64,000 bases of DNA from the NCBI GenBank assembly GCA_001771585.1, contig MEUE01000001.1, positions 21,062 through 85,061 of the forward strand. Direction: 5' to 3'. A model generated the notes under the pieces. That model saw only the letters and a list, made by a program, of their open reading frames with translations, ran no database searches and was not told where the DNA came from. This DNA comes from a candidate division WOR-1 bacterium RIFOXYB2_FULL_46_45. GTDB taxonomy: Bacteria; Margulisbacteria; WOR-1; XYC2-FULL-46-14. The position numbers and the translations under genes are program-made. Positions 1,863 through 60,321 of the stretch are shown here, piece by piece (positions within the stretch are counted from its first letter, which is position 1; every line of letters starts with the position of its first letter).

Positions 1863-3527
1863 ATGGCATCAAAAGAATTGCTTTTTGGCGACGACGCGTG
1901 GCGCGCCGTTGAAAAGGGCGTGACCAAAGTCGCGGAAGCAGTAAAAATTACGCTTGGACCTCGCGGGAGGAATGTCGTAATCGAGAAAAAATGGGGATCA
2001 CCGACGATTACCAACGACGGGGTTACCATAGCGAAAGAGATTGACCTTGAAAATCCGTTTGAAAATATGGGGGCACAGCTTTTAAAAGAGGTCGCTTCCA
2101 AGACCAACGATATCGCGGGAGACGGGACCACCACCGCAACTTTGCTTGGTCAGATTATTTTTAAAGAGGGCTTAAAGGCCGTCGTTTCCGGGATCAACCC
2201 GATGGCGCTCAAGCGCGGGATCAACATGGCGGTTGAAAAGGCCGTTTCGGAACTGAAGAAACAGTCCCGCCCGGTTGAAGATAAGGAAGCGATCGCCCAG
2301 GTTGCTTCCATTTCGGCCAACAACGATCCGGAGATCGGGAACCTGATCGCCGACGCGATGGAAAAAGTCGGGAAAGACGGGGTCATCACCGTTGAAGAAT
2401 CAAAGGGGATTGAAACCTCTCTTGACGTGGTTGAAGGGATGCAGTTTGACAAGGGCTACGCTTCTCCCTACATGGTCACCGACCGTGAACGGATGGAATG
2501 CGTCCTTGAAGACTGCTTCATGCTGATCACCGACAAGAAAATTTCGGCGATCAAAGACCTGCTTCCCGCTTTGGAGAAGACGGTCCAGCTGAGCAAGCCC
2601 CTGCTCATCATTGCCGATGAGATCGAGGGTGAAGCTTTGGCGACAATCGTGGTCAACAAGATCCGCGGGACATTAAACTGCGTAGCGGTTAAGGCCCCCG
2701 GGTTCGGAGACCGCAGGAAAGCCATGCTTGAAGATATCGCTATTTTGACCGGCGGCGAAGTCATCTCGGAAGACAAGGGCTTGACCCTTGAAAATATCCA
2801 GGACGGCTGGTTCGGCAAGGCCAAAAAGATCGTAGTGAGAAAAGAAGACACCACGATCATTGAAGGTGCCGGAACGCAAAGGGCGATCAAAGACCGCGTT
2901 GCACAGATAAAGAAGGAGATCGAGCAATCGGATTCTTCTTACGACAAAGAGAAACTGCAGGAGCGGCTGGCAAAGCTCTCCGGCGGGGTCGCGATCGTTA
3001 AGGCGGGAGCTCCTACCGAAACCGAGCTGAAAGAAAAGAAACATCGCATTGAAGATGCCTTGTCGGCCACCAGGGCCGCGGTTGAAGAGGGGATCATTGC
3101 CGGCGGAGGATCATCGTTTATGCACATCCTTTCGGCTCTCGAAAAGTTTGAAAAAGAGACTTTAGGGGACGAGAAGGTTGGGGTTAGCATTATCCGCAAG
3201 GCGCTCGAAGAGCCGTTGAAGCAAATCGCGCGCAATGCCGGATTCGAAGGTTCGGTGGTAGCGGAAAGGGTTAAAAAAGAGAAAGAGGGTTACGGTTTCA
3301 ACGCCCAGACATTCGATTATACCGATATGTTTAAGGCGGGGATCGTCGATCCGCTCAAAGTTACCCGCTCCGCGCTGCAGAACGCGGCTTCAATCGCTTC
3401 GATGTTGTTGACAACCGAAGTGCTGGTTGCCGAAAAGCCGGAACCGGATAAGGGGATGCCTCAAATGCCGGGCGGCGGCGGAATGGGCGGCATGGGTGGA
3501 ATGGGCGGTATGGGCGGCATGATGTAG
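1863..3527 (+). CDS. groEL: Chaperonin GroEL (60 kDa)
   Basis: The 554-aa product has DGTTTATLL and a C-terminal [13 protein letters not shown] tail. An SD AGGAGG lies upstream. Confidence 0.97.
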
Positions 3528-3573
3528 TCCTTCGCTCCTTCGGAGCTTCGGACTATTTAGTCTAGAATTGGAA

Positions 3574-3608
3574 GAGAGGCCAGACGCAAGTTTGGCCTCT
3601 CTTTTTTG
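3574..3608 (+). terminator. Rho-independent terminator after groEL
   Basis: The stem agagaggccagac / gtttggcctctc has a gcaa loop and is followed by TTTTTT. Confidence 0.75.
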
Positions 3609-3642
3609 TGAAATTTTTGCTAAAATCTAACGATAAATATAC

Positions 3643-5685
3643 ATGGTAAGAATTGTTCAGGCTTCCGCAGGGTTGTTTAGGCATCGTTTGGGCGTACACA
3701 GACAAATAGTCGGTTCTAATCAGAGTTCCGCATTGAGCCAACCGCTCAGCTCCTTTCTTTCAACCTATGGAACAATGTTGCTGCTTTCTCCTCTTTGTGT
3801 TTTGGGGTTATTTGGTGTAACCGGAACAGCATCAAAAGGGCGCCCCGAAAGGTTTGAAATAAGGGGACAAAGCATTTTTCCCAAATATGCCATGGGAAGA
3901 GTCTTGGTGATAAAGGAAGAAAATGATCTTAGCAGTTTTCCTTGTAGGATTGGTTTGAGCGATGAAGAAGTTGAAGCTAAAACGGCAAGATTACAAAGGG
4001 TTTTTGAAAGAGTCGGCCAAGCATTAACGGATATAGCAGGGATAACCGGAGAATTGAGCGGTCTTGAGGGGATATTTGGGGAAATGCGGGAGTTTTTACT
4101 CGATCATATGCGAGAACAAAAAACAAATCTTGCTTCGGCCATTAACGCTTTTCTTGATACAGAAGCATGTATCGCGCTAAAGAACAGTTCCGATGCAAAA
4201 TTCAGTTCTATCTACCAGGACATCGTAAGATTGGGGTTAAAATTATTAAATATATACCGCGGGAATTTTTTTGATGTCCAAGAAGAAATAAGTAAATATA
4301 AAAGACGGGACATCATAATTGCGGCCGAAGATATTTGCCCGTCTGACTTAGCGGCATTATGCGGTACGGACAGCGTAAAAGGAGTCTTGCGCAAAACTGG
4401 AAATCTCATGGACCACAACAGCATCGGCATAAGAAACAAAGGATGCGCGGGAATGGTTTCATTGGAAAAAGGATTTGGGAATATACGTTCGGATAATTAC
4501 GTGATCATTGACGGGCACCGGCAATTTATCATTGTCAATCCGACCAGAGCAGAAATCAAAAAATACCGGGCCTTGATTGACAAACAAAATCAAATAGAAA
4601 AAATGACGGCAAAAACAAGAAATAGGCCGGCTAAAACAAAAGAGGAAGTTACCATTGACCTTTACGGAAACGTTATGCAGGAAGAAGACCTGCCCCTGCT
4701 CAGGCAAAAAAAAGCGGTCGGAATCGGGCTGGTGCGCACCGAGGCTTTCATTGCAAAAGACAGAGGAGAGAGTCGCCCTTCTCCGCCCACAAAAGAAGAT
4801 CAAGCCGTTTATTATGAAGACATCGTTTATGCTTCTCCGGGATCGGTAACATTTAGAACGGTTGACGTGTCCAAAGATAAACAGCTTCCTTTTGTAATCC
4901 CCTTATCCGAAAACAATCTTTCCGATCCCAGAAAAATAGGGATTGGGGCTTGTTTGGATATGAGCAGTCCGTATTATTCCATTTTTAGAGATCAATTGGC
5001 CGCATTGCTTGGATTAGATTTTAGAAATAAGACAATTAAAATAATGTTCCCTTTGGTTCTTGAACCGCGGCAGTTAGAAAAAGCCATGGGAATGGTTTCA
5101 GATATTATAGGGAATAATCCCAAGAAAAAAGAACGTTTCGCTTTCGGAATTATGGTTGAACACCCCGAAACAGTCGCCAACTTACCCCAATTTTTAGAAA
5201 ATCCGGATTTGCAATTTATAAGCGTTGGGACCAACGACCTAACACAATATTCTACCAAGGTCAGCCGATATTCGGAAGAAAAAACGGCAAACGAGCTTGA
5301 TCCAAGACATTTAAAACAACTTGCCCATATCTATGATCATGTAAAAACAGCAAACGAAAAAAGAAGAGAGCGGGAATTTTCAGAAATCGACCTCTCCTGT
5401 TGCGGAGACATGGGAAATACCTATTATGGCTTTTTAACGCTTTTAGCCTATGGGATCAGGAAAATAAGCATAGCAACTCCATTTATTGACGCGGCAAGGT
5501 TTATTGTGCAAAACATTGTTTTTTCCGATTTGGCGATTTTAAGGTCAAGATTGCAAGACGCGACAACCCCTGAGATGGCAAGATGGCTTATCGATAAATT
5601 TATTGAAGAAAAAATTGAGGATGGCAGTTGGGATGGCGGGCTAAAAAAACTATTCGGACATTTAAAAAGCGGAGTTGCCACTTAA
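3643..5685 (+). CDS. PEP-utilizing enzyme family protein, PtsI (enzyme I)-like, divergent with a long N-terminal extension
   Basis: Alignable motifs are MDHNSI (~ PtsI TSHTSI phospho-His), NYVIIDGHRQFIIVNPT (~ DYLILDAVNNQVYVNPT), GIGLVRTEAF (~ GVGLYRTEFLF), ISVGTNDLTQYS (~ FSIGTNDLTQYT) and CCGDMG (~ MCGELAG). The start is uncertain: internal Met codons at 3775 and 3892 are possible. Confidence 0.65.
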   Translation: MVRIVQASAGLFRHRLGVHRQIVGSNQSSALSQPLSSFLSTYGTMLLLSPLCVLGLFGVTGTASKGRPERFEIRGQSIFPKYAMGRVLVIKEENDLSSFPCRIGLSDEEVEAKTARLQRVFERVGQALTDIAGITGELSGLEGIFGEMREFLLDHMREQKTNLASAINAFLDTEACIALKNSSDAKFSSIYQDIVRLGLKLLNIYRGNFFDVQEEISKYKRRDIIIAAEDICPSDLAALCGTDSVKGVLRKTGNLMDHNSIGIRNKGCAGMVSLEKGFGNIRSDNYVIIDGHRQFIIVNPTRAEIKKYRALIDKQNQIEKMTAKTRNRPAKTKEEVTIDLYGNVMQEEDLPLLRQKKAVGIGLVRTEAFIAKDRGESRPSPPTKEDQAVYYEDIVYASPGSVTFRTVDVSKDKQLPFVIPLSENNLSDPRKIGIGACLDMSSPYYSIFRDQLAALLGLDFRNKTIKIMFPLVLEPRQLEKAMGMVSDIIGNNPKKKERFAFGIMVEHPETVANLPQFLENPDLQFISVGTNDLTQYSTKVSRYSEEKTANELDPRHLKQLAHIYDHVKTANEKRREREFSEIDLSCCGDMGNTYYGFLTLLAYGIRKISIATPFIDAARFIVQNIVFSDLAILRSRLQDATTPEMARWLIDKFIEEKIEDGSWDGGLKKLFGHLKSGVAT

Positions 5686-7144: not shown

Positions 7145-8134
7145 ATGAAGATACAAAAATTTAAAGAGATGCTCAAACAGATCCAGGAGGAGCGCAATAT
7201 CAATAAAGAAGATATTGTCTCCGCTCTGCAGGAGGCCCTTTTACTCGCCGCCCGCAAGCGTTTTCCCGACAAAGAGACTGTCGAGGTCAAATTAAGCGAA
7301 GAAGGGGAGGCGCAGATCTATGACCAGGGTATTGATATCACCCCCTCTGATTTTGGGCGGCTGGCAGCCCAAACCGCCAAGCAGGTAATTTTACAAAGGA
7401 TCCGCGAAGCGGAAAAAGACGGTATTTTTAAAGAATACCAGGAAAAAGTCGGACAATTAATCAACGGAACGGTCCAGCGCCGGGAACCCTACGGCTATAT
7501 GATCAACATCGGAAGGATTGAGACCTTTCTCTCTTTTGAAGAGGCGATCCCGGGTGAAATTTTTAAGCCGCATGAAAGGGTTCGGGTCATCATCCTTGAC
7601 GTCAAAAAATCTCCCAAAGGGCCGGTAGTCATCGTCTCCCGCGCCCATCCCAATTTTATAAAACTCCTTTTTGAAATGGAAGTCCCCGAAATACAGGACA
7701 AGATCCTTGAGATCAAGGGGATTGCCAGGGAACCGGGACGCAGGACCAAGATTGCGCTGGTCTCTTCCGATCCGAATGTCGGGGTGGTTGGTACCTGTGT
7801 TGGACAGATGGGGGGGAGGATCCAGAATATCACCAGGGAAATCAACGGAGAGAGGATCGATATCATAGAATGGTCGGATAATCCCAAAAAGTTTATTTCT
7901 TCGGCTCTCTCTCCCGCCAAATCGGTCGGGATTGAAATAAACGAAGAAGCAAAATCGGCCCGGGTTATCTTTGATCCGTCGGAGCTGTCGCTTGCGATCG
8001 GGAAAGAGGGACAAAATGTCCGGTTGGCCGCGCGGCTGACCGGTTATAGAATAGATATTATCTCGAAAGAAGAGAGCAAGAAAGAGGAAATCAAAAAAGA
8101 TGGCGAAAAAAGCACCGACAAAGAAAACGCTTAG
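7145..8134 (+). CDS. nusA: Transcription termination/antitermination factor NusA (short form, no C-terminal AR repeats)
   Basis: KEDIVSALQEALLLAARKRF is the NusA N-domain. S1 and KH regions are present (GIAREPGRRTKIAL, GTCVGQMGGRIQNI). The protein is 329 aa. Confidence 0.92.
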   Translation: MKIQKFKEMLKQIQEERNINKEDIVSALQEALLLAARKRFPDKETVEVKLSEEGEAQIYDQGIDITPSDFGRLAAQTAKQVILQRIREAEKDGIFKEYQEKVGQLINGTVQRREPYGYMINIGRIETFLSFEEAIPGEIFKPHERVRVIILDVKKSPKGPVVIVSRAHPNFIKLLFEMEVPEIQDKILEIKGIAREPGRRTKIALVSSDPNVGVVGTCVGQMGGRIQNITREINGERIDIIEWSDNPKKFISSALSPAKSVGIEINEEAKSARVIFDPSELSLAIGKEGQNVRLAARLTGYRIDIISKEESKKEEIKKDGEKSTDKENA

Positions 8135-10121
8135 GGTCAGCGCCCTGGCCAAAGAACTTGGCAAGACCAGCAAGGAATTGCTTGCGATCCTTAAAGATTT
8201 AGGGATCCCGGCCAAAACCCACGCCAGCACCATCGAAGAAGAATCTGTCAAAATAGTTAAAGAATTATTGGAACCAAAAAAGGTTGCCTCTCCCGTTCCG
8301 GTTCATCCCGTTCCCGTTCCGCCTCCACCTCTTCCTATTCCTACTCCTCCTATGCCTACGCCTATGCCTATGCCTATGCCTTCTCCCCCTCCCCAGGTTA
8401 AGTCGATTAAGATAAAGGGTGAGGGTATAATCGTCAAGGACCTTGCCGACCTCTTAAAAATAAAGACGACCGATGTCATCAAAGAGCTGATGAAGAAGGG
8501 GTTCCTATTAAACATTAACCAATCGCTAAACGCCGAAGTGGCCAAACAGGTGGCGGAGCAATTCGGTTTTACCGTTGAGGTTGTTATGCGGGAAGAGAAG
8601 AAGCACGAAGTCCTTTTGTCCGACCTGCACGAATTAAAAACGCGTCCTCCGGTGGTAACGATTATGGGACATGTCGACCACGGAAAAACAAAACTACTCG
8701 ATGCGATCCGCGCAACCAAAGTCGCCGAGTCCGAAGCGGGGGGGATCACCCAGCACATCGGCGCATATCAAGTTGAAATCAAGGGGAAGAAAATTACTTT
8801 CCTCGATACCCCCGGCCACGAGGCCTTTACCGCTCTGCGTGCCAGGGGAGCCAAAGCTACCGATATCGCGGTCTTAGTCGTGGCGGCCGATGATGGGGTG
8901 ATGCCGCAGACGATCGAAGCGATCGACCACGCCAAAGCGGCGGGGGTCCCAATCATTGTGGCCATAAATAAAGTAGATAAGCCGGATTCCAATCCGGATA
9001 AAGTTAAACAACAATTGACCGAACACAAATTGGTTTCGGAGGATTGGGGGGGAGACACTATCATGCTCCCGGTTTCCGCCAAAAATAAGACCGGGATAGA
9101 CGAACTGCTGGAGATGATCCTTCTGGTGGCCGAAGTCCAGGAACTGAAAGCCAATCCGGGAGTTCCGGCAACCGGAGTCGTTATCGAATCAAAATTAGAC
9201 AAGGGGAGAGGGCCGGTCGCGACAATATTGATAAAGAACGGGACCCTGAAGGTTGGCGACGCTTTTGTCGCCGGCAAGGCCTACGGGAAAATTCGGGCCC
9301 TGATCAATAGCTTCGGAAAACGGGTCAATAAGGGCTTTCCCTCTTCTCCCGTGGAAATCCTGGGAGCATCGATTGTTCCCCAGCCGGGAGAACTTTTTGA
9401 AGTAGTCGCGGATGACAAGGTTGCCCGTCAGACGGCGGAAGATAATCTTGCCAGCCAAAAATTTTCACAGCACGGGGCGCAGACGCTTGAAAGCTTCAGC
9501 CAAAAAATAAAAGAAGGGGAAAGGAACGACCTTAAGATAGTACTAAAAGCGGATGTGCAGGGATCGCTCGAAGCGATCGCGCAGTCCCTCCAAACTCTTG
9601 AAGTTAACATTATCCACGCTCAGGTGGGAGAAATTTCCGAAAGCGATGTCCTGCTGGCGGAAGCGTCAAACGCGATCATCATCGGGTTTAACACTCTGGT
9701 TTCATCAAGAGCCCGCGAAATCGCCCGGACCGAAGGGGTTAATATCCGTCTTTATAATATTATTTATAAGGTAATAGACGACGTCAAAAAGGCGATGGAG
9801 GGCTTGCTGGCGATAGAGTATGAGGAAGTCGTGATCGGCAAGGGAGAAGTTCGGAACACCTTTAAATATTCAAAAGTCGGCGTAATCGCCGGTTGTTTTG
9901 TCCTTTCCGGAAAAATTGTGCGGGGCGCCGGTTTAAGAGTATTCCGCGATTCCAAGCTTATTTACGAAGGAAAAGTTGAAAACCTAAAAAGATTTAAAGA
10001 TGACGTAAAAGAGGTCCTGGAGGGCTTTGAATGCGGGGTTTCGATAAACGGCTACGAAGATTTCAAAGAAAAAGACCAGCTGGAAATTTTCGAAATGAGG
10101 GAAAAAGGAAAGAGTGAATAA
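8100..10121 (+). CDS. infB: Translation initiation factor IF-2
   Basis: The N-domain reads LRVSALAKELGKTSKELL. G-domain motifs are GHVDHGKTKLLD, DTPGH and NKVD. The 673-aa gene overlaps the nusA 3' end by 35 nt in another frame. Confidence 0.95.
   Translation: MAKKAPTKKTLRVSALAKELGKTSKELLAILKDLGIPAKTHASTIEEESVKIVKELLEPKKVASPVPVHPVPVPPPPLPIPTPPMPTPMPMPMPSPPPQVKSIKIKGEGIIVKDLADLLKIKTTDVIKELMKKGFLLNINQSLNAEVAKQVAEQFGFTVEVVMREEKKHEVLLSDLHELKTRPPVVTIMGHVDHGKTKLLDAIRATKVAESEAGGITQHIGAYQVEIKGKKITFLDTPGHEAFTALRARGAKATDIAVLVVAADDGVMPQTIEAIDHAKAAGVPIIVAINKVDKPDSNPDKVKQQLTEHKLVSEDWGGDTIMLPVSAKNKTGIDELLEMILLVAEVQELKANPGVPATGVVIESKLDKGRGPVATILIKNGTLKVGDAFVAGKAYGKIRALINSFGKRVNKGFPSSPVEILGASIVPQPGELFEVVADDKVARQTAEDNLASQKFSQHGAQTLESFSQKIKEGERNDLKIVLKADVQGSLEAIAQSLQTLEVNIIHAQVGEISESDVLLAEASNAIIIGFNTLVSSRAREIARTEGVNIRLYNIIYKVIDDVKKAMEGLLAIEYEEVVIGKGEVRNTFKYSKVGVIAGCFVLSGKIVRGAGLRVFRDSKLIYEGKVENLKRFKDDVKEVLEGFECGVSINGYEDFKEKDQLEIFEMREKGKSE
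8290..8400 (+). repeat. Proline-rich tandem repeat (PVP / PMPTPMPMPMP) encoding the IF-2 inter-domain linker
   Basis: ccgttcccgttccg and cctatgcctacgcctatgcctatgcctatgcct are directly repeated 6-9-nt units. Confidence 0.7.
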
Positions 10122-50041: not shown

Positions 50042-53000
50042 TTACGCGTTCACCAGATTACTCGCATCCCTATAATGCTCGTAAACAAAGTTATAAACTT
50101 CGATTTTCTTTATTTCACAATCTTGCTCTGTATAAGTTGGTTCCGGCAGTTTTTCATACAAAAGATCAGAAATGGTAGTTTTGACTCCTGCCCTATTTGG
50201 CTCAAAATCTCGCCAGTGAGAAACCAAAAGCGGCTTGAGATTTATAAGCAATTCATGAGATGTACCTTTTATGCAAGCAACTTCATCGGGATTGAGATTA
50301 TCTTTGATAAGCAGATCAAAAATCGCTAACTCCTCTTCGGTCATGTTTTCTCTGGCAGCGCGTTGTTCTTCTTCACTTAGATCTTTTGCCAAATCGATGA
50401 GATCTTCAAAAAGCTGGTCAATGTCATGGGCGCCGCTATTATATTCTTGCAAGAGAGAAATAAGCCTTTCCATAAATTTGGCCCGTTTTTTGTTTTTTCT
50501 AACCATTTCCGCTATTTTCTTTTTAAGTTCGGCACTCATACAAGCTACTTGCATATTCTTGTTTTCCAGCCCGGCAAAAAAAGCCTGAAGGGCATTGGCA
50601 TCAAGCAAGCTCAAATCTTTTATCTTTTTGTGCTGTGGAATGACATATTCACCCGCCTGGATAGATTTATCCAGCAAATCCTCTAAATCTTTTTTTACCT
50701 GGGAAACGTCCACGCTTTTTGCTCCCACATCGCGGATACGAGATGCCAAAACACGGACAGCTGTTACTTCGCGGCAATAATCTTCCGCGTTGGGATCAGG
50801 CAAGACCGAACGATAAGCGCTTTGCAAATCACTGGAAAGATTAAGAAACTTTTTCTTGTTTTCCTGGACGCCAATAATTTTGTCGGCATATTGTTCCAGG
50901 ATCAGCAATTTCTGCTCGCTCGGCGCTGCCAATAAAGGCTCAAGCTCCATTTTCTCTCCCCGCATAAATTCCTTTGCATTACGCAACGCCTTTTTCAGAT
51001 CAGTAAGCAACTCGTCTTTACTCCGAATAATTTCATCCTCATCCGTTCCGGTGGCCGCATATAAAGCCAAAGCACGCTCAATATTTTTAAACACGCCAAT
51101 ATAATCCACGATTAAACCGTTTTTCTTCCCTTCATCAGCAACACGGTTAGCGCGCGCGATAGTTTGCATCAAGGTATGGTTTTTAAGCGGCTTATCCAAA
51201 TAAAGAGTGGAAAGATTGGGCACATCAAAACCGGTCATCCACATGGCACAAACAAAGATAATGCGCAGATTGCTATTAGCCTTCTTAAACTCCTCTTCCA
51301 GATTACCATGGATTATCCGCTCTCTAATCGGTCGGACATCAATTTCATACTGTTCCATATCGCTAATTTCGTTTTGGTTGTCGCCCAAGCTGACCATAAC
51401 TGCCATATCCACTTTTTCGTATTGCTCCAGTTTGGCAAGGATCTTTTCCTGCTCGCGCTCGTCGGCAACGCGGGAAAGATCCATGCGCAATTTTGCAATA
51501 TAACGGCCCCATTCTTTTTTTACTTTGTCATACATCCTGAAAGCGGTCTTTTTATCAATGGATACCACCATTGCCTTGCCATCGTATCCCCGCCCCACAA
51601 AGTGCTCCACAATATCGCGGGCAATAGTATTAAGCCGGTCTTCACGGGTAACAATTTCATAAAAAGTGGAGTATTCCCTTTCCAGTTTTTCCTCTTCATC
51701 CTCATCAAGGTCATACCTGTCCAGCAATTGCCCTAATTGAACTTCCAGGTTTTCATTAACATTTTTGAGGCGCGGAACCCGATTCTCGTAAAAGAGCGGA
51801 ACGGTTGAACCATCAGCCACTGACTGTCCAAAGTTATAAACGGAAACATACTCGCCAAAAGTTTTGATTGTTTCCGGCTCATTAGCAGCCATCAATGGGG
51901 TACCGGTAAAGCCGATAAAAGAAGCGTTAGGCAGGGCCCGGCGCATATTAAGAGCCATTTGATCATACTGGGTGCGGTGCGCCTCATCGGTCATAACGAT
52001 TATGCTGTCGCGCGTGGAAATTGGTCCGGAGATATCCTGGAATTTTTGGATAGTAGTAAAAATTTGGCGATGGTCCTCACCCAGCAAAGCGTGAAGATGA
52101 GCGATGCTTTCAGCATGAACCTCTTTTTCATAAACCGCGCCAACATGGGCAAAATTATCATATGCTTGTCCATCCAGCTGCGCCCGGTCAGTTACAATTA
52201 CAAAGGTAAAATTGCCTTCCAATTTACGCAAGACTTTTTGCGACAGCCAGACCATGGAATATGATTTTCCCGAGCCTTGCGTGTGCCAGAAGACGCCAAG
52301 TTTGCCATCTTTTTCGTGACGATCAACGACATTATTAAATGCGCGATTGACCCCAAAATATTGAAAATAGCGCGGGAGTATTTTTTTGACAGAGCCAAGG
52401 GATTCGTCAAACAGCACAAAGTTTTCCAAGATATCAAGCAAGCGTGTTTTGTCGCAAATGCCGTTAATAATTGTTGCTAGGTCTGTTCTGGGTTTATCTT
52501 CTTCCCTTTTCGCCTTTTTCCATTCGTTAAAAAACTCATAAGGAGAGGTAAGGGAGCCAAATTTATTTTCAATGCCGTTAGAAATAATAATTCCCAGGTT
52601 ATACCAAAAAAGCTTGGGGATAGTGCCTTTGTAATCGCGGATATTATCGCGGTAGGCGTCAACCAGGCTTTTGTGCGAAGCTTTTAGTTCCAGGAGCACT
52701 AGCGGAATACCGTTAACAAAGAGGACGATATCCGGGCGTCTGGTATACATGGGGCCAACCACCCAGAGCTGGGAAACACAAAGGAAGTGGTTGTTTTTAG
52801 GGTTTTCAAAATCAAAAAACCGCACCCGATCTATTTTGTTTTGTCCTTTAGTATTAACGGTTTTAACGTTTGCCCCATCGCGCAAGAGCTGATAAACTTC
52901 GTGATTAGCTTTAACCAGGCTTAGGTTGGAGCGATCGCGGATAAGTTCATCTATGGCAATAACGAGGGCGCTTTCGGACAAGTGGGGATTGATCTTTTTA

Positions 53001-53173
53001 AGCGCTGGCATGAGATATTTTTCCAGCACCACTTCACCTTGATTTTTACGGCCAAGCAACAAATCGTTTTCTTCTTTAAAGGTGTCAATATGACAATCTT
53101 TATCCGCCCAAACTTTTTTGATGAGCCTGATAACCGTTTTTTCCACTAAATTAGCTTCGTTAAATTGGGTCAT
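50042..53173 (-). CDS. hsdR: Type I restriction enzyme R subunit (HsdR)
   Basis: The 1043-aa product has an SF2 helicase core with DEAH (VMTDEAHRTQ). Confidence 0.92.
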   Translation of the reverse strand: MTQFNEANLVEKTVIRLIKKVWADKDCHIDTFKEENDLLLGRKNQGEVVLEKYLMPALKKINPHLSESALVIAIDELIRDRSNLSLVKANHEVYQLLRDGANVKTVNTKGQNKIDRVRFFDFENPKNNHFLCVSQLWVVGPMYTRRPDIVLFVNGIPLVLLELKASHKSLVDAYRDNIRDYKGTIPKLFWYNLGIIISNGIENKFGSLTSPYEFFNEWKKAKREEDKPRTDLATIINGICDKTRLLDILENFVLFDESLGSVKKILPRYFQYFGVNRAFNNVVDRHEKDGKLGVFWHTQGSGKSYSMVWLSQKVLRKLEGNFTFVIVTDRAQLDGQAYDNFAHVGAVYEKEVHAESIAHLHALLGEDHRQIFTTIQKFQDISGPISTRDSIIVMTDEAHRTQYDQMALNMRRALPNASFIGFTGTPLMAANEPETIKTFGEYVSVYNFGQSVADGSTVPLFYENRVPRLKNVNENLEVQLGQLLDRYDLDEDEEEKLEREYSTFYEIVTREDRLNTIARDIVEHFVGRGYDGKAMVVSIDKKTAFRMYDKVKKEWGRYIAKLRMDLSRVADEREQEKILAKLEQYEKVDMAVMVSLGDNQNEISDMEQYEIDVRPIRERIIHGNLEEEFKKANSNLRIIFVCAMWMTGFDVPNLSTLYLDKPLKNHTLMQTIARANRVADEGKKNGLIVDYIGVFKNIERALALYAATGTDEDEIIRSKDELLTDLKKALRNAKEFMRGEKMELEPLLAAPSEQKLLILEQYADKIIGVQENKKKFLNLSSDLQSAYRSVLPDPNAEDYCREVTAVRVLASRIRDVGAKSVDVSQVKKDLEDLLDKSIQAGEYVIPQHKKIKDLSLLDANALQAFFAGLENKNMQVACMSAELKKKIAEMVRKNKKRAKFMERLISLLQEYNSGAHDIDQLFEDLIDLAKDLSEEEQRAARENMTEEELAIFDLLIKDNLNPDEVACIKGTSHELLINLKPLLVSHWRDFEPNRAGVKTTISDLLYEKLPEPTYTEQDCEIKKIEVYNFVYEHYRDASNLVNA

Positions 53174-54666
53174 AATTTTTGAGAAAAATAATTACATGCT
53201 TCTAATAGAAACTGTTCGAATTCGACAAGCCAATTATTAAAATCATCATTATTCAACATTTCCTTATAAAGCTGATTAAAAACTTCGTTTTCAGTTATAG
53301 AGATCGACGCCTCAACACATCTAGAAAATAAAATATGGGCAGGAGAATGATCTAAATGATATTGCAAATTTGCATTCGGATATTTATTTAAGTAATTTCT
53401 CAGCAAAAATTTTTCTGGGGGGTCACCAGAAAAGAGAAAACTTATTCTATCATCGGTTCCGATTATTGCTGAATAAACATCTCTCTTATCTCCATCAAAA
53501 ACCGCAGCATATCCAATATTTATTTTTGAAAGACCCCAAGTTCTCTTAAATACATCATAATTTTCCTTGACTTGTTTATCCGAACCAGAAAGAACAACGT
53601 TAATGTGTCTGTGTATATCACGATAACCTTTGTTTTGTAATGATTCCAGTGCTTTATTTATTATTCTTAGAGATACCGGATCTTCATAAAATAGATTTAA
53701 AAGTGGAAATATCTGAGAATCCATCTTTGAAAAAGCCGCATTAACACTAATTCTTTGAATTGAACGAGAATCATTGTTTTCCTTTTTTTCTATAAAAATA
53801 CGCGACTCATGATCAAAACTTGCAAGAAGCGTTGGCGAGTGCGTCGTAACAATAAATTGTTTTTGATCTTTCAATGCTATGTCCATTAAGACATCTACAA
53901 GTCTTCGTTGGATTTTAGGGTGCAACCCCAACTCTAATTCGTCAATTAAAACAAGAGATTTCTTCTCAGCCTGAACAGAATCAAGCAGGATGGCCAATAA
54001 AACATCTTCTCCAGAAGCTGAATTAAAACTGGTAAAAACATTATTCAGTTTATAACTGGCCTTATTATGATGCCTTGCGATATGAGCAAGCTCAAACGAA
54101 GTTTCAAAAACATACTCAAAATATTCAACAACCCGAGGATCAAGCTGAGTAATCGCTCCAGATGCCTGTGTATTAATAAACAAGACATTTGAACATGCCC
54201 GTGCTGGAGTTATGCGATCCACATCTATATAAATGACTTTTCTGTTTCGTATTTGACTTTCTTTTTTTGCAATCCCACTCCATTTTTTTGTGATAGCTGT
54301 TCTTTTTCCTTCTTTTTCTTCAGCATGCTTACCTATTTTATATTTAATATTATATTCCCAATCAGATGCCTGCTTATCATGTTTGGTAAATTTAACCAAA
54401 CGACCCCAAGTACAACGATTAAATTCCCCAGTCCCAATATCTCTCATTTGAAACTCAAAATGACTGCACGCCAACATAGCCAAAATGCTGGTTTTGCCAA
54501 TTTTATTGGTACCTGTAAGAACAGTTAGTGGATGTATAAAATTTAGATCCAATCTTGATATATTTCGAAACCTTTTTATAATCAATTTATGAGTAAATAG
54601 CGGAAATTGATGTTCATTGTCAAGATCAATATTTTTTAATTGTTGCCGAGTTTTATTAGGATTCAC
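53170..54666 (-). CDS. AAA_21-type ABC ATPase with a C-terminal TOPRIM-like region (RloA/RloB-, OLD- or PARIS-like candidate defence protein) embedded between hsdS and hsdR
   Basis: Walker A is LTGTNKIGKTS, Walker B is LVLIDELELGLHP, and the H-loop is IVTTHSPTLL. The C-terminal ~170 aa carry VVLSGSDK...AVFDGDKRD (TOPRIM-like DxD). It has 4-nt overlaps with both hsdR and hsdS. Confidence 0.55.
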   Translation of the reverse strand: MNPNKTRQQLKNIDLDNEHQFPLFTHKLIIKRFRNISRLDLNFIHPLTVLTGTNKIGKTSILAMLACSHFEFQMRDIGTGEFNRCTWGRLVKFTKHDKQASDWEYNIKYKIGKHAEEKEGKRTAITKKWSGIAKKESQIRNRKVIYIDVDRITPARACSNVLFINTQASGAITQLDPRVVEYFEYVFETSFELAHIARHHNKASYKLNNVFTSFNSASGEDVLLAILLDSVQAEKKSLVLIDELELGLHPKIQRRLVDVLMDIALKDQKQFIVTTHSPTLLASFDHESRIFIEKKENNDSRSIQRISVNAAFSKMDSQIFPLLNLFYEDPVSLRIINKALESLQNKGYRDIHRHINVVLSGSDKQVKENYDVFKRTWGLSKINIGYAAVFDGDKRDVYSAIIGTDDRISFLFSGDPPEKFLLRNYLNKYPNANLQYHLDHSPAHILFSRCVEASISITENEVFNQLYKEMLNNDDFNNWLVEFEQFLLEACNYFSQKL

Positions 54667-54670
54667 ACTT

Positions 54671-55828
54671 TCAACCCCTCTTCCCCGTAACCAACTGGGG
54701 AATTAAAAGATCACGGATTTTGGATAGATTTTGACTTTGATCAAGCAGGTTTGTAATTTTTGACCGGAGCATAGAAACCTTACTCTCAAAGTCTTCTAAT
54801 GTTTTTTTGTCTGGAACAAGTATATTGATCATTCCTACTTGTTTTGAATTTACGCTTTTCCTGGTAGTCCCACTTGATGAACCAACTACAAAGTTTTGAT
54901 ATTTTTCTGATATTAGAAAATAAAACAAAAAATAGCTTGTTAGCCGGCTCTTTATTTTTAATCTCATTAGATATGAGGCAAAAATTGCATCAACCTGCTT
55001 TTCACATATACCTATTTTCCCCGGATCAGCCATACGAATAATAAATATGTCCCCTTTTTGTATTGTGTATCTATTTTTATCATCTGCTTTAATTTCACAA
55101 CACGGCACAGATGACCAATTTATGTATGAAGTCTTATTAATATCCATACCTCGTAAAAACTTAACGCCGGATGTTTTGTCAATTGCTGATGTGGTAAACC
55201 CATATTGTGGTTGTATTAAATCCCCCAACCTCTTCACCCCCCACCCCTCCGGTATCTTGCCATACTCTGTCCCACTATCAACCATCTTAACCTTTTTATG
55301 GCAAGGAAATTTAAACTTCACAAACCACTCGGCATAAAGCCGCTGGGCTATTTCTTCCAGAATTTTGATCCGCTTTTCGTTGTTTTCAATCAGATCGTCG
55401 TAGGTGGAGAGGATGGAGGCGATGCGGGATTGGGTTGGGAGATCGGGACGATATGCAATAATTTGATTTAATAATCTTTGCGTCATTAATGGCTGGGCAG
55501 CGCCACCAGCATATTTATTTAAGTTTAATATCCTTAATAAATAATTGACATATGTCAAATTATTTTCTTCTTCATCAACTTTTGCAACTATTGTATTGTC
55601 AGAAGCCCAAAATCTACTTTTGCACATTTCAACGGATCCACAATAAGCGCCCACTCTACCTATTATTATTGCATTTTCATATTGGTATTCCTCAGATCCA
55701 CCAATGACCCCATTTGAACCAAAAACAGGATATCTCCCCTCTCCTCCAGGCCTTATTGATTTTCCATTAAAGAAATGTAATAAATCCCTTAATCTCACTT
55801 TCTTAAAATTTGCCTTATTTCTTTTCAA
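54671..55828 (-). CDS. hsdS: Type I restriction-modification specificity subunit (HsdS), two target-recognition domains
   Basis: The 385-aa product has HsdS-typical central and C-terminal conserved helices (LDDLIENNEKRIKILEEIAQRLY, LLDQSQNLSKIRDLLIPQLVTGK). Confidence 0.85.
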   Translation of the reverse strand: MKRNKANFKKVRLRDLLHFFNGKSIRPGGEGRYPVFGSNGVIGGSEEYQYENAIIIGRVGAYCGSVEMCKSRFWASDNTIVAKVDEEENNLTYVNYLLRILNLNKYAGGAAQPLMTQRLLNQIIAYRPDLPTQSRIASILSTYDDLIENNEKRIKILEEIAQRLYAEWFVKFKFPCHKKVKMVDSGTEYGKIPEGWGVKRLGDLIQPQYGFTTSAIDKTSGVKFLRGMDINKTSYINWSSVPCCEIKADDKNRYTIQKGDIFIIRMADPGKIGICEKQVDAIFASYLMRLKIKSRLTSYFLFYFLISEKYQNFVVGSSSGTTRKSVNSKQVGMINILVPDKKTLEDFESKVSMLRSKITNLLDQSQNLSKIRDLLIPQLVTGKRG

Positions 55829-55899
55829 TTCTCAACCTCTCCATCCCATGTTTCCTCCCTGACTTTCCAATCAAATAGCCATCAAATGACCTTCCCCAA

Positions 55900-56034
55900 T
55901 TAATATCTTTTGCCATCAGAACCAGTATTCCGGAATTTCCGGATAACTGCCTCCTTTGTCAATTCCGCTGCCAAAAATATGTTTTGCAAGTGCTCACTGA
56001 CTGTACGCACATCAACGCCAAAAAGTTCCTCCAT
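55900..56034 (-). pseudogene. Relic 44-codon fragment of a RhuM-family gene between hsdM and hsdS
   Basis: Translation MEELFGVDVRTVSEHLQNIFLAAELTKEAVIRKFRNTGSDGKRY aligns with the core of the intact RhuM two genes upstream (IALLFGVQRPAITKHLKNIFENGEL...TADDGKTY). It is truncated at both ends. Confidence 0.4.
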
Positions 56035-56040
56035 CCCTTT

Positions 56041-57680: not shown

Positions 57681-58763
57681 TCATCCCTCTTTGCTTCCAC
57701 GCTTCTTCTTCTCAATAGCCAAAAACTTTTTCACCTCGCGGTCAAAATCGGAAATGTAGTTTTTGTCCTGCGCCTGGCGATATTTTTCATATTCTTTCAA
57801 TGCCAGTGTCTCGGCGACTTCGTGTGCAATTTTCCCGGCGTCACCCAATATTTGTTGCTCGTTAAATTTTAGAAATGCGTCTAATTTTGATACCCAGTCC
57901 TTCATATACATAATAATCCCGCGATTAGCCTGCATTTCCGCAAAATCAAGGTACATGGTTACGATCCTATTGAGGTGATCAAGCTCTTTTTCGTTGAGAT
58001 AGTTTTTGGCAATCACCACGTCGGCCTCTCGAATTTTACCCTTTGGAGCATTTTTCCAAACAGTCAGCCCCATATTCACTTTAGTACTATCGGCTCTTTC
58101 GTGGATTATCTCTGCGGCAGTTTTGCCCGTCATGGCAAAGTGAAGCTTGTTTTGCACTGTGGCAAAAAATTGCCTGGTTATGTCGCTGTCTGGGGAATAG
58201 TCCGCACTACACTCCGCGTATATATCGGTAATCTTTTGATACATCCGTCTTTCGCTTGAGCGTATATCTCGTATTCGGGCAAGCTGCTCCTCAAAATAGT
58301 CTTGGCCAAAGATATTGTAAGGATTTTTGAGCCGCTCGTCATCCATGGTAAAGCCTTTGATGATATATTCTTTTAGCCTTTCCGTGGCCCAGATTCGAAA
58401 TTGTGTCGCTTGCGCGCTATTGACCCGATACCCCACGGAGAGAACCGCATCAAGATTGTAAAACTTTGTATTGTACGTTTTTCCATCATCGGCAGTATGT
58501 TCCAAAATGGAACTAACTGAATTTTCATTTAATTCGCCATTTTCAAAGATATTCTTAAGATGTTTAGTAATAGCAGGCCTTTGTACTCCAAATAAAAGGG
58601 CAATTTTGTCTTGAGTAAGCCAAATGTTTTCATCGCGCAAAAATATCTCAACTTTCACTTTGCCATTTGGTGTGGTATAAAGTAAAAACTCCGTAAAACT
58701 GTTGTTGGTAACAATTTGTTGGTTCTTTTTTTTCATAAGCGGTTTATCCTCACTATCTATCAA
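57681..58763 (-). CDS. rhuM: RhuM-family protein
   Basis: KVKVEIFLRDENIWLTQDKIALLFGVQRPAITKHLKNIFENGEL...DGKTYNTKFYNLDAVLSVGYRVNSAQATQFRIWAT is a strong match to the PF13310 RhuM consensus. Confidence 0.8.
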   Translation of the reverse strand: MIDSEDKPLMKKKNQQIVTNNSFTEFLLYTTPNGKVKVEIFLRDENIWLTQDKIALLFGVQRPAITKHLKNIFENGELNENSVSSILEHTADDGKTYNTKFYNLDAVLSVGYRVNSAQATQFRIWATERLKEYIIKGFTMDDERLKNPYNIFGQDYFEEQLARIRDIRSSERRMYQKITDIYAECSADYSPDSDITRQFFATVQNKLHFAMTGKTAAEIIHERADSTKVNMGLTVWKNAPKGKIREADVVIAKNYLNEKELDHLNRIVTMYLDFAEMQANRGIIMYMKDWVSKLDAFLKFNEQQILGDAGKIAHEVAETLALKEYEKYRQAQDKNYISDFDREVKKFLAIEKKKRGSKEG

Positions 58764-58788: not shown

Positions 58789-60321
58789 CTACACCACCCT
58801 CATCTCCAATATCCGATCCACCCGAAAGACCCGCTCTTCCTGCCGATGATGGCAAAAAGCCCTGATGCCCAAAAAGGGCTTCTCGTTGTAGTACATCTCC
58901 CCCACTTCGAGCGGCTCAATCACCCGCTTTGACTTAACATCCTGCGCCTTGAGATATAAAACCTCAATCCGGTTTTTTTCTTCAATCGCCTTGGTGATTA
59001 TCGCGACTTTATCGTCCAACGAACACAGCTTCTCCGACAATCCGTATTGATACCCGGTCACAAACTTGACCACCCGCCAGTCCATGAAAATATGCCCTTT
59101 TTTGATCGGCTTCTTCAAGACCATCCCTTCCAGACTGCGGCAGCGGCTTAAGGCGACATACATTTGGCCGTGGGCAAAGGTCCCGTTCCCGATATCAATC
59201 ACCACCCGGTCAAAGGTCTTCCCCTGGCTCTTGTGGATAGTGATCGCCCAGGCCAGCTTGAGCGGAAACTGGGTAAAAGAGGCGGTTACCTCCGATTCAA
59301 TCCTCCGGTTTCTAGTATTGTAGCTGAAATGAAAAATTTCCCAGGTGTAAGGGTTAACCTCATGCGTCTCGCCGCTTTGCAATTGGATAACAAGTTCGTC
59401 CTTCTTGATGTCCTTAATTTTAGCCATGGTGCCATTGACCCAGCGGCCAAACTGATCGTTGTTTAGCATCATCACCTGCGCCCCTTTTTTCAGTTTCAGC
59501 TCAATTTCGGTCGGCAATTGATTCCTGTCAAACTGACCCTCCATCTCCCCTTCAAAAACCCGCTCTTTTCCGGGGAGCTGTTCCAGTTTTATTTCATTCA
59601 TCTCTTTTGCCATCCGGTTGGTGGTAGTCAAAAGGATCGAATAATCACCCTTTGGTTCGTAATCCACATCAACTCTTCTGTTAAGTTCCAGCAATTCGTT
59701 TTCTCCGGCGGTGTTGTTGCGGATCGAATTGAGCAGGGCAATAAACTTTTCGTCCCTCTGGCGGTAGACCTTTTCCAGCTCAAGATATTCCATCGTCAAT
59801 TGACCAAAAACTTTTGCGGAAAAAAAATATTCGCTGTCATAATGATTCTTAAAAATATGCTTCTCTTCCCCGGCTACCACCGGCGGCAGTTGATAGAGAT
59901 CGCCAAAAAAGATCATCTGCAGGCCGCCGAACGGCTTTTTCCGGTTCGGACCGTTTAAGCGCAGGAATTTATCAACGCAGTCAAGCAGGTCCGCCCGAAC
60001 CATCGAAATCTCGTCAATCACAATGGCATCAAGCTGTTTATAAATATTCGGCTTTCCGTCTCTAAACTTAATTTCCCTTATTTTTGAGAGCGTTATATCC
60101 GGCTTAAAATGAAAGAAAGAGTGGATCGTTTCTCCTCCCACATTGATCGCCGCCACTCCGGTCGGAGCCAAAACCACCACCCGCTTTTTGGTTTGATTGC
60201 GAAAATAATCGAGCAGGGTCGATTTTCCGGTCCCGGCCTTGCCGGTTATAAAGACATTCTTGCCGGTGTTTTCGATAAGACAGAGTGATTTTTTAAAGAG
60301 TTCGTTAAGTTCTACCGGCAT
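58789..60321 (-). CDS. PIF1/RecD-like SF1B DNA helicase with a C-terminal WYL-like domain
   Basis: Walker A is ITGKAGTGKST. Further motifs are VLAPTGVAAINVGGETIHSFF and DAIVIDEISMV. The C-terminus RVIEPLEVGEMYYNEKPFLGIRAFCHHRQEERVFRVDRI is WYL-like. It is the first gene of the leftward island. Confidence 0.8.
   Translation of the reverse strand: MPVELNELFKKSLCLIENTGKNVFITGKAGTGKSTLLDYFRNQTKKRVVVLAPTGVAAINVGGETIHSFFHFKPDITLSKIREIKFRDGKPNIYKQLDAIVIDEISMVRADLLDCVDKFLRLNGPNRKKPFGGLQMIFFGDLYQLPPVVAGEEKHIFKNHYDSEYFFSAKVFGQLTMEYLELEKVYRQRDEKFIALLNSIRNNTAGENELLELNRRVDVDYEPKGDYSILLTTTNRMAKEMNEIKLEQLPGKERVFEGEMEGQFDRNQLPTEIELKLKKGAQVMMLNNDQFGRWVNGTMAKIKDIKKDELVIQLQSGETHEVNPYTWEIFHFSYNTRNRRIESEVTASFTQFPLKLAWAITIHKSQGKTFDRVVIDIGNGTFAHGQMYVALSRCRSLEGMVLKKPIKKGHIFMDWRVVKFVTGYQYGLSEKLCSLDDKVAIITKAIEEKNRIEVLYLKAQDVKSKRVIEPLEVGEMYYNEKPFLGIRAFCHHRQEERVFRVDRILEMRVV

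Follow-up and report, generated by a model that had tools for sequence, protein, structure and literature searches.

The window analysed here, a stretch of 64 000 nucleotides from contig MEUE01000001.1 of the candidate division WOR-1 bacterium RIFOXYB2_FULL_46_45, contains a type I restriction-modification (R-M) operon in which a gene for a 498-amino-acid ATPase lies between hsdS and hsdR, and this raises the question of what the gene encodes and why it is found there. An earlier note, made from the letters alone, had read its product as an ATP-binding cassette (ABC) ATPase of the AAA_15/AAA_21 defence type with a TOPRIM-like tail. Sequence comparison shows it to be remotely homologous to IbfA over its full length and a member of the described HEC-04/IbfA type. 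We consider it probable that it acts as a single-polypeptide antiphage effector of this type, carried as a passenger in the operon hsdM-hsdS-X-hsdR and co-expressed with it.

Assignment to the HEC-04/IbfA type

HEC-04 (Hma-embedded candidate 4) is an ABC ATPase with an OLD-like TOPRIM domain of ∼500 amino acids. A representative reduced plaquing when present alone in E. coli MG1655 without R-M systems, defence was lost in the Walker A mutant K62A and in the TOPRIM triple mutant E319A/D375A/D377A, and induction of the gene was toxic (bioRxiv 10.1101/2024.01.29.577857). HEC-04 protects against T4, T5 and other phages, and not against T7 or lambda (PMC12111858). IbfA, encoded by the IncI1 plasmids R64 and pUA1135, is a HEC-04 homologue according to PADLOC and confers an abortive-infection-like block of a P22-like phage (PMC12111858).

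The best-scoring PADLOC model for the window protein was HEC-04 (PDLC04149; E 3.2e-31, 106.5 bits), with residues 17-431 aligned to profile positions 19-410 of 494, and the next model was PtuA with 82.8 bits. HEC-04 was always the first PADLOC model for three other members of the window family (118-131 bits), and R64 IbfA scored 141 bits on the same model; thus the window protein is about as distant from the HEC-04 model as IbfA is. Pairwise comparison of the window protein with R64 IbfA gave 26% identity over 329 amino acids (BLASTP E 4e-10). A profile of the window family, made from an alignment of 38 homologues (A1, to which the word invariant refers throughout), matched R64 IbfA end to end over 450 columns (28-513 against 12-510; hhalign probability 99.67, E 1.5e-25). 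In R64 (NC_005014) ibfA is located at L086:12654-14210, beside proQ as published.

The features of the HEC-04/IbfA type that could be tested were all found, namely HEC-04 as the best defence model, end-to-end homology and conservation of the essential residues; the equivalents of the mutation-sensitive residues of HEC-04 (K58, E328, D391 and D393) were invariant in the 38 homologues. The earlier suggestion that the protein might be a compact or new variant was not upheld, as its size and architecture are those of the described type (498 amino acids, compared with 518 in IbfA and 494 positions in the HEC-04 model). One candidate family member, a match on a Citrobacter plasmid (H19), was rejected, being closest to the retron I-B ATPase-Toprim model.

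The C-terminal tail

The full-length AlphaFold2 (AF2) model had a mean predicted local distance difference test score (pLDDT) of 89.4. Foldseek searches with this model matched PtuA, GajA, OLD (TsOLD) and the retron Eco8 effector, with TM-scores of 0.3-0.4; these matches were dominated by the ATPase head and did not settle the TOPRIM domain, hence residues 305-498 were modelled apart. The model of the isolated tail had a pLDDT of 90.7 and a predicted TM-score of 0.85. In both models the tail begins with four strands that have helices between them and ends in a helical bundle. A comparison of the predicted structure with OLD had been suggested earlier; a TOPRIM fold was predicted, and the best match of the isolated tail in both structure searches was the catalytic region of B. 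pseudomallei OLD (BpOLD, 6nk8_B), which Foldseek aligned over 216 columns (E 4.4e-3, probability 0.97).

Two acidic motifs, E328-D329 and D391-G392-D393, occupy canonical TOPRIM positions in this model and were invariant in the 38 sequences. E328 was aligned with the sequence ...YVEDD... of IbfA, and D391-D393 with the IbfA sequence LDGDK. In the helical bundle P417 and E418 were invariant, and H437, H444 and K449 nearly invariant. With hhalign, a profile of the tail could be aligned with the IbfA tail between strands 1 and 3 (probability 86, E 5e-6), and in an exhaustive HMMER search of 1.84 billion representatives with this profile the marginal matches all had HEC-04 as their best PADLOC model; for two short marginal matches it was only the C-terminal part of the HEC-04 model that was matched. 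Because a confident AF2 fold, an invariant E...DxD, a structural match to BpOLD and the links to the HEC-04 and IbfA tails were all obtained, the tail is, as modelled, a TOPRIM domain of the OLD/HEC-04 kind.

Parts of the original description of the tail required correction. The E/DxD core had been placed in the pattern VLSGSDK...AVFDGDKRD, of which the DGD (D391, D393) was retained; the glutamate assigned to VLSGSDK was not, as this segment is the loop of strand 2 and the predicted catalytic glutamate is E328 of LFYED. The tail was TOPRIM-like in its fold, its topology and its conserved E...DxD, but the proposed resemblance to RloB or DUF4435 was not supported by any Pfam match in the window protein or its homologues.

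The two-domain logic is shared with classical members of the OLD family and with PARIS, and the window protein could be read as one of these (a class 1 OLD, GajA, a retron class 3 OLD or a fused AriAB). The PADLOC models for the retron I-B ATPase-Toprim (1.3e-18, residues 216-487 against 185-441 of 443), AriAB (5.7e-20), GajA and Old were all matched, as were the structures of TsOLD, GajA, the Eco8 effector and the BpOLD catalytic region. However, these models scored far below HEC-04 and mostly in the Walker B/H-loop region only; the PtuA, NsnB, AriA, AriAB, GajA and Old models covered little of the window protein beyond Walker B to the H-loop. Pfam gave no match to an OLD-like TOPRIM, DUF4435 or Toprim family, the model is without the long helical dimerisation insert that is present in OLD proteins, and no gene for a GajB-like helicase, a reverse transcriptase or AriB is found in the operon. 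Membership of these classical groups is therefore considered very improbable.

The ATPase head

Only the ATPase part of the window protein was recognised by Pfam (AAA_15 5.5e-18, AAA_21 5.2e-15 and SMC_N), and the nearest solved relatives in the PDB profile and Foldseek searches were PtuA, OLD, AriA and GajA, which bears out the defence-type ATPase that had been called. Walker A (GTNKIGKTS), Walker B (LIDELE, within LVLIDELE) and the H-loop (TTHSP) were all present as previously read (residues 52-60, 238-245 and 274-278; Table 1), and K58 aligns with the Walker A lysine whose mutation abolishes HEC-04 defence. From its position ahead of Walker B, the sequence NSASGE is the putative ABC signature motif. 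NCBIfam matches were all far below threshold, the PtuA model reaching 73 bits against a cut-off of 500 and TIGR04435 (Restriction system-associated AAA ATPase) 32 bits against 300.

Residues 69-215, which separate the helix of Walker A from the signature, are modelled mostly as beta strands, with two short helices at residues 160-168 and 177-187. Insert 1 is unusually dense in invariant residues (67-154), these being C67, S68, H69, R84, W87, D97, Q99, W103, Y105, W129, G131, K134, R151 and P154, and this set is largely missing from the IbfA alignment. These residues are a candidate for a family-specific sensor or a nucleic-acid-binding surface. The sequence N-P at residues 2-3, at the N-terminus of the protein, is also invariant in the window family; both sets of residues are encoded within 54100-54660.

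A role outside defence, as an accessory or housekeeping ABC ATPase (a repair factor resembling RecF, RecN, SMC or Rad50, or a modulator of R-M), is suggested by SMC_N, RecF and RecN, which were matched weakly in Pfam and NCBIfam, and by Rad50 and RecF, which were matched in the PDB around the P-loop. Such matches are limited to generic ABC motifs and fall far below the family cut-offs, whereas the strongest relatives are all defence ATPases. The sporadic distribution, horizontal mobility and anomalous GC content of the gene, and the defence and toxin genes beside its relatives elsewhere (see below), also argue against such a role, and of all the explanations weighed here we give this one the least credence.

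The gene, its junctions and the operon

The 498-amino-acid open reading frame (ORF) was confirmed from the ORF list and its translation at the position first given; it lies on the minus strand and begins with GTG (Table 1). A plus-strand reading of 53170-54666 was rejected, its translation being riddled with stops. The GTG start is credible because homologues in the alignment open with the same conserved M/I-N-P-N, and a purine-rich GGGGAAGAGGGG stretch is located just ahead of it. With 316 homologues, one of them an identical protein, the ORF is genuine and not a product of chance. This identical protein was present on seven JGI metagenome contigs, the longest of 1.67 Mb, where its neighbours were the same; the locus is therefore a chromosomal locus of an uncultured bacterium and not part of a plasmid or phage.

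Table 1. Coordinates of the ATPase gene, its domains and motifs, and the neighbouring genes in the window (residue numbers refer to the 498-amino-acid protein).
Feature	Position	Strand	Evidence and remarks
ABC-ATPase-TOPRIM gene (HEC-04/IbfA-like), 498 amino acids	53170..54666	-	GTG start 54666-54664, TGA stop 53172-53170; ORF list and translation, PADLOC, hhalign, AF2
ABC ATPase head, residues ~23-304, with beta-rich insert 1 and short insert 2	53755..54600	-	Pfam, model secondary structure, Foldseek
Walker A/P-loop GTNKIGKTS, residues 52-60, K58 invariant	54487..54513	-	Sequence and alignment
ABC signature-like NSASGE, residues 215-220; N215, A217 and E220 invariant	54007..54024	-	Alignment A1
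Walker B LVLIDELE, residues 238-245; E243 invariant, D242 nearly so	53932..53955	-	Sequence and alignment
H-loop TTHSP, residues 274-278; H276 invariant	53833..53847	-	Sequence and alignment
TOPRIM core (predicted), residues ~321-412: beta1 323-327, alpha, beta2 355-359, alpha, beta3 385-390, alpha, beta4 408-410	53431..53706	-	
E328-D329, motif F-[CY]-E-D, immediately following strand 1; Glu predicted to bind metal	53680..53685	-	Invariant columns, IbfA alignment
D391-G392-D393 (DxD), directly after strand 3	53488..53496	-	Invariant columns, IbfA LDGDK alignment
C-terminal helical bundle (predicted), residues 417-498	53173..53418	-	AF2 block pLDDT mostly 93-96, last block lower; alignment; Foldseek
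hsdR, restriction subunit, 1043 amino acids	50042..53173	-	Pfam HSDR_N, SWI2_SNF2, T1R_D3-like, T1RH-like_C
hsdS, specificity subunit, two target-recognition domains	54671..55828	-	Pfam Methylase_S 1.5e-25, two stretches
hsdM, methyltransferase subunit, 526 amino acids	56041..57621	-	Pfam HsdM_N, N6_Mtase 1.2e-79
RhuM-family protein, candidate defence gene directly upstream of hsdM	57681..58763	-	Pfam 4.4e-110; PADLOC PDC-S05 3e-147
PIF1-like SF1 helicase with C-terminal WYL domain, candidate defence gene	58789..60321	-	PIF1 1.1e-31, WYL 6.3e-10

The location between hsdS and hsdR was confirmed by Pfam searches with the neighbours; HsdM, HsdS and HsdR were each matched over their full length, and the type I R-M operon is intact. 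The order of genes on the same strand is PIF1-like helicase/WYL, RhuM, hsdM, hsdS, the ATPase gene, hsdR and a response-regulator gene. An overlap of 4 nt had been reported on both sides of the ATPase gene. The downstream overlap was found (ATGA, 53170-53173), the ATG of hsdR overlapping the stop of the ATPase gene, but upstream the TGA of hsdS ends at 54671 and the GTG begins at 54666, with a 4-nt spacer between them. Despite this spacer, the conclusion that the ATPase gene is co-operonic with hsdS and hsdR still stands. The likening of this site to that of rloA/rloB was correct for the location in a type I R-M operon and not for the RloB protein or domain, there being a single ORF with no PF13707 match.

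Scans for promoters and terminators showed no excess of promoter-like or terminator-like sites at the locus, the counts being those expected from shuffled sequence. The best promoter-like match of the region, at 54555-54582 (+), is antisense within the 5' part of the ATPase gene (TTGATA, 16 nt, TATAAT; 11/12); it may be due to chance, since the gene is AT-rich and such sites are no more numerous than in shuffled sequence. The window gave no match in scans for Rfam families and tRNAs, and a search of the window for repeats or insertion scars around the ATPase gene returned chance-level short matches only.

The 212-nt spacer between hsdM and hsdS (55829-56040, minus strand) contains an in-frame stretch of 46 amino acids, KGMEELFGVDVRTVSEHLQNIFLAAELTKEAVIRKFRNTGSDGKRY, followed by a stop, at 55900-56040. 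Over 41 amino acids it is 41% identical to residues 57-97 of the intact RhuM encoded upstream (BLASTP E 4e-9), and from this similarity a second RhuM-like gene seems to have been embedded there formerly and to have left this remnant. The helicase-WYL protein gave partial PADLOC matches to PDC-S68, RecD-like and PDC-M16A.

Distribution of the family and its association with R-M operons

The tail profile detected 78 cluster representatives (50% identity) among the 1.84 billion, of which about a dozen were full-length proteins of ∼500 amino acids and many were short sequences matching only part of the profile, which we regard as fragments; this search brought up no clear family of TOPRIM partners that stand alone. 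A species-level genome scan yielded 80 loci, mainly from Bacteroidota and also from Proteobacteria, Gracilibacteria, Kiritimatiellae and others. No close copies of the window protein were detected by tblastn on 72,556 plasmids or 50,697 phage records. No partner gene was conserved across the 80 genome loci beyond the R-M genes, and the gene is therefore taken to constitute a single-gene system.

In a neighbour-joining tree the window protein fell within a monophyletic clade at ≥59% identity. In this close clade, all nine distinct loci with readable context had type I R-M genes around or beside the ATPase gene, which in eight of them was clearly within the operon, although these nine loci do not represent nine independent events. 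The ATPase gene was found directly after hsdS and before hsdR in seven loci (the window, L004, L087, L089, L090, L092 and L094). In L093 hsdS lies upstream and the contig then ends, and L088 has the order hsdR-RhuM/Fic-hsdM-ATPase-hsdS with an HsdR of the EcoEI type. The hsdS of L003 was apparently shorter; this was due to a different called start, the match of the ORF to the window HsdS being just as good. The identity of the ATPase to the window protein was 77, 70, 65, 63, 61 and 59% in L004, L087, L089, L092, L090 and L088 respectively, and that of the corresponding HsdR to the window HsdR was 77, 55, 60, 37, 32 and 23%. With HsdR diverging over this range (23-77%) while the ATPases remain 59-77% identical, the gene is therefore associated with clearly different R-M operons. 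What is new here is this small, sequence-distinct clade that is R-M-resident at ≥59% identity; the novelty is otherwise modest.

More distant relatives showed a different pattern. Among 75 genome loci at ≤46% identity, 68 had no type I R-M gene within 6 kb, six had one nearby and one was embedded (L017, from Kiritimatiellae). The outgroup protein P0016 (52% identity) is encoded among purine genes. At L096 5299-7485 the gene for the nearest outgroup, P0030, lies 4 nt after a DpnI-like methyl-directed restriction gene and has a zeta toxin and an EVE-domain protein nearby. The association may extend to restriction systems of any kind and not be limited to type I; the loci homologous to P0030 in the genome scan were titled Candidatus Gracilibacteria. 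Another near outgroup lies beside a SocA/Panacea gene, and the neighbours of relatives elsewhere include defence and toxin genes (DpnI-like, zeta toxin, SocA/Panacea, GmrSD and RadC).

The contrast between nine of nine close-clade loci in or beside type I R-M genes and one embedded locus in 75 distant ones fits a PrrC-like guard, in which the nuclease would be silenced by contact with HsdMS/HsdR and would fire when an Ocr-, Stp- or ArdA-like protein disables the complex, embedding being required. An anti-anti-restriction sensor of this sort, triggered by Ocr-like proteins, had been raised in the earlier note. The differences among the host operons, with HsdR ranging from 77% to 23% identity and with two gene orders (M-S-A-R and R-RhuM/Fic-M-A-S), and the tight or overlapping junctions point in the same direction. 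There are also precedents in PrrC of EcoprrI, which is released by Stp, and in PARIS, an ABC ATPase with a TOPRIM partner that is triggered by Ocr. Against this, HEC-04 acts alone in R-M-free E. coli and does not protect from T7, a phage that makes Ocr, and IbfA is active on plasmids where no R-M genes adjoin it. The relatives at ≤46% identity are mostly stand-alone (68/75), the relative at 52% is found among purine genes, and the nine loci of the close clade do not amount to nine independent events. The AT-rich gene and the presence of unrelated genes at the same junction fit a 'genomic sink' with co-transfer equally well. On balance a guard of this kind appears unlikely. We are similarly doubtful that the distinct IbfA/HEC-04-like clade of the window protein has specialised in type I R-M operons, moving among unrelated hsd operons and each time entering where two subunit genes meet, and acts as a TOPRIM counterpart of PrrC.

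Base composition and other passengers

The ATPase gene has a GC content of 0.330 (0.236 at third codon positions), compared with 0.43 for hsdR and hsdM and 0.47-0.52 for the flanking housekeeping genes. The GC of hsdS is 0.367, and the GC trough of the window (53000-56000) is confined to hsdS and the ATPase gene, which may have been exchanged together as a unit. The ATPase gene was more AT-rich than hsdR and hsdM in all loci compared (the window and six others); in L088 its GC was 0.435 against 0.58. The presence of this dip in every locus points to a horizontally mobile cassette. The helicase-WYL gene (58789-60321), unlike the R-M block, has a GC content of 0.474, equal to that of the genome.

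The same junction also hosts other genes, which are a KAP NTPase gene in L004, a gene for a DUF4268 protein in L017 and a DUF4143 ATPase gene in L094. In L004 the KAP-family P-loop NTPase gene lies between the ATPase gene and hsdR (7571-8848), and a DUF4268 gene is found upstream of hsdM (2099-3037). In L017 the DUF4268 gene is between the ATPase gene and hsdR (7652-8656), with a gene for a KilA-N protein between hsdM and hsdS (3458-4369). In L094 (2006-3654), which carries a 65%-identical homologue, the DUF4143/AAA_14 ATPase gene is inserted exactly at the ATPase/hsdR junction. Ahead of it the initial 24 codons of hsdR are duplicated, and this is a scar in which the insertion of a cassette can be seen. 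L087 has an unannotatable ORF of 216 amino acids between hsdM and hsdS (3481-4131).

Proposed mode of action

The antiphage effector proposed at the outset draws on the observed architecture, motifs, homology, junctions, GC content and recurrence, while its role in defence and the dependence of that role on the ATPase and TOPRIM sites are predicted from the homologues. The N-terminal ABC ATPase would serve as sensor and switch for the C-terminal OLD-like TOPRIM domain to which it is fused, a putative metal-dependent nuclease. As long as the cell is uninfected, the ATPase head would keep the nuclease inactive, probably within an oligomer. The inserts peculiar to the ATPase of this family could then sense a cue derived from the phage, and a change in ATP binding or in the oligomeric state would expose the TOPRIM site. 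An analogy is found in P2 OLD, in which an inactive tetramer is destabilised and the TOPRIM site is thereby opened to cleave tRNA (bioRxiv 10.64898/2026.07.10.737580). The AriB protein of PARIS is also a tRNA nuclease, and GajA and the class 1/2 OLD proteins are DNA nucleases. The nucleic acid cleaved by the exposed site of the window protein might be tRNA, like that of P2 OLD and AriB, or else DNA, like that of GajA and the class 1/2 OLD proteins. Phage production would be stopped at the cost of the cell, by abortive infection or destruction of nucleic acid. Embedding would provide co-expression and co-transfer with the R-M system, and hence a second layer of defence, and would not be needed for activity.

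Several points weigh against this proposal. The identity to IbfA, at the sequence level, is only 22-26%, and the assignment to HEC-04 is that of the best profile score and not a call at PADLOC's own thresholds. The tail itself was not recognised by family models: in the window protein Pfam (E up to 10) gave no TOPRIM match and only a chance match to DUF659, PADLOC gave no match to the tail alone, 28 homologous tails searched against Pfam (E up to 1) gave no Toprim, RloB, DUF4435 or OLD-like TOPRIM, and the tail profile against PDB sequences found no solved structure and only a chance match. A defence role of the window protein is predicted by analogy with the HEC-04 and IbfA assays, and in the case of IbfA phage transcription was altered, there was no ATP depletion and nuclease activity was not demonstrated in that study (PMC12111858). 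It might also be that activity depends on the R-M complex, given how strictly the close clade is associated with R-M.

If the window protein is indeed an effector of this type, it would be a further example of 'guilt by embedding' and would add both an uncultured lineage and type I R-M hosts to the known range of the HEC-04/IbfA type. A confidently modelled member of ∼500 amino acids, from a family without a solved structure, could be convenient for structural and biochemical work. The pattern in the close clade is the more interesting point, with AT-rich ATPase genes whose products are ∼60-77% identical occupying hsd junctions of host R-M systems down to 23-37% identity. These natural ATPase/R-M pairs make it testable whether an embedded ABC-TOPRIM effector monitors the R-M complex as PrrC does.

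Comparison with known systems

The closest likeness is to HEC-04, which is also a single protein of ∼500 amino acids with an ABC ATPase, an OLD-like TOPRIM, the Walker A lysine and the Glu and DxD residues, and whose gene likewise lies embedded, with matching orientation, in a defence system of several genes. The window protein differs in being remote from the model (106.5 bits, the last ∼80 profile positions unaligned) and in its host, a type I R-M operon where that of HEC-04 is Hma. IbfA is a full-length homologue of similar length, also assigned to HEC-04 by PADLOC, in which the YxED and DGD motifs are aligned; however, it is plasmid-borne beside proQ, whereas the window protein is encoded in an R-M operon and shares with it only the low identity given above.

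The OLD proteins (P2 Old and TsOLD in class 1, GajA and BpOLD in class 2, retron Eco8 in class 3) have the same arrangement of an ABC ATPase at the N-terminus and, at the C-terminus, a TOPRIM with acidic metal ligands. Class 2 is defined by a neighbouring UvrD-like GajB, and class 3 by a retron reverse transcriptase and ncRNA. In contrast to these, the window ATPase insert is modelled without a helical dimerisation domain, and the tail has no sequence match to OLD TOPRIM models, the PADLOC Old model covering residues 231-320 only. The window protein is also shorter, and no UvrD-like gene, helicase, reverse transcriptase or retron partner is present in the operon. PARIS, a known ABC ATPase-TOPRIM pair triggered by anti-restriction proteins, similarly couples an ABC ATPase sensor to a TOPRIM effector, and the AriA and AriAB models match the ATPase part of the window protein, which differs in having no DUF4435 match and half the size of a fused AriAB.

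That type I R-M operons can harbour embedded defence genes, those of ABC-ATPase systems included, has already been described. PrrC, in the EcoprrI hsdMSR locus, and Campylobacter rloA/rloB resemble the present case in that the gene for an ABC-type ATPase is nested in a type I R-M locus. The window gene is a single ORF without a match to RloB (PF13707), unlike the two overlapping rlo genes. The close clade occurs in R-M operons as consistently as has been described for PrrC, but its effector is a predicted TOPRIM domain and not the anticodon-nuclease domain of PrrC, and the tail matches no PADLOC model.

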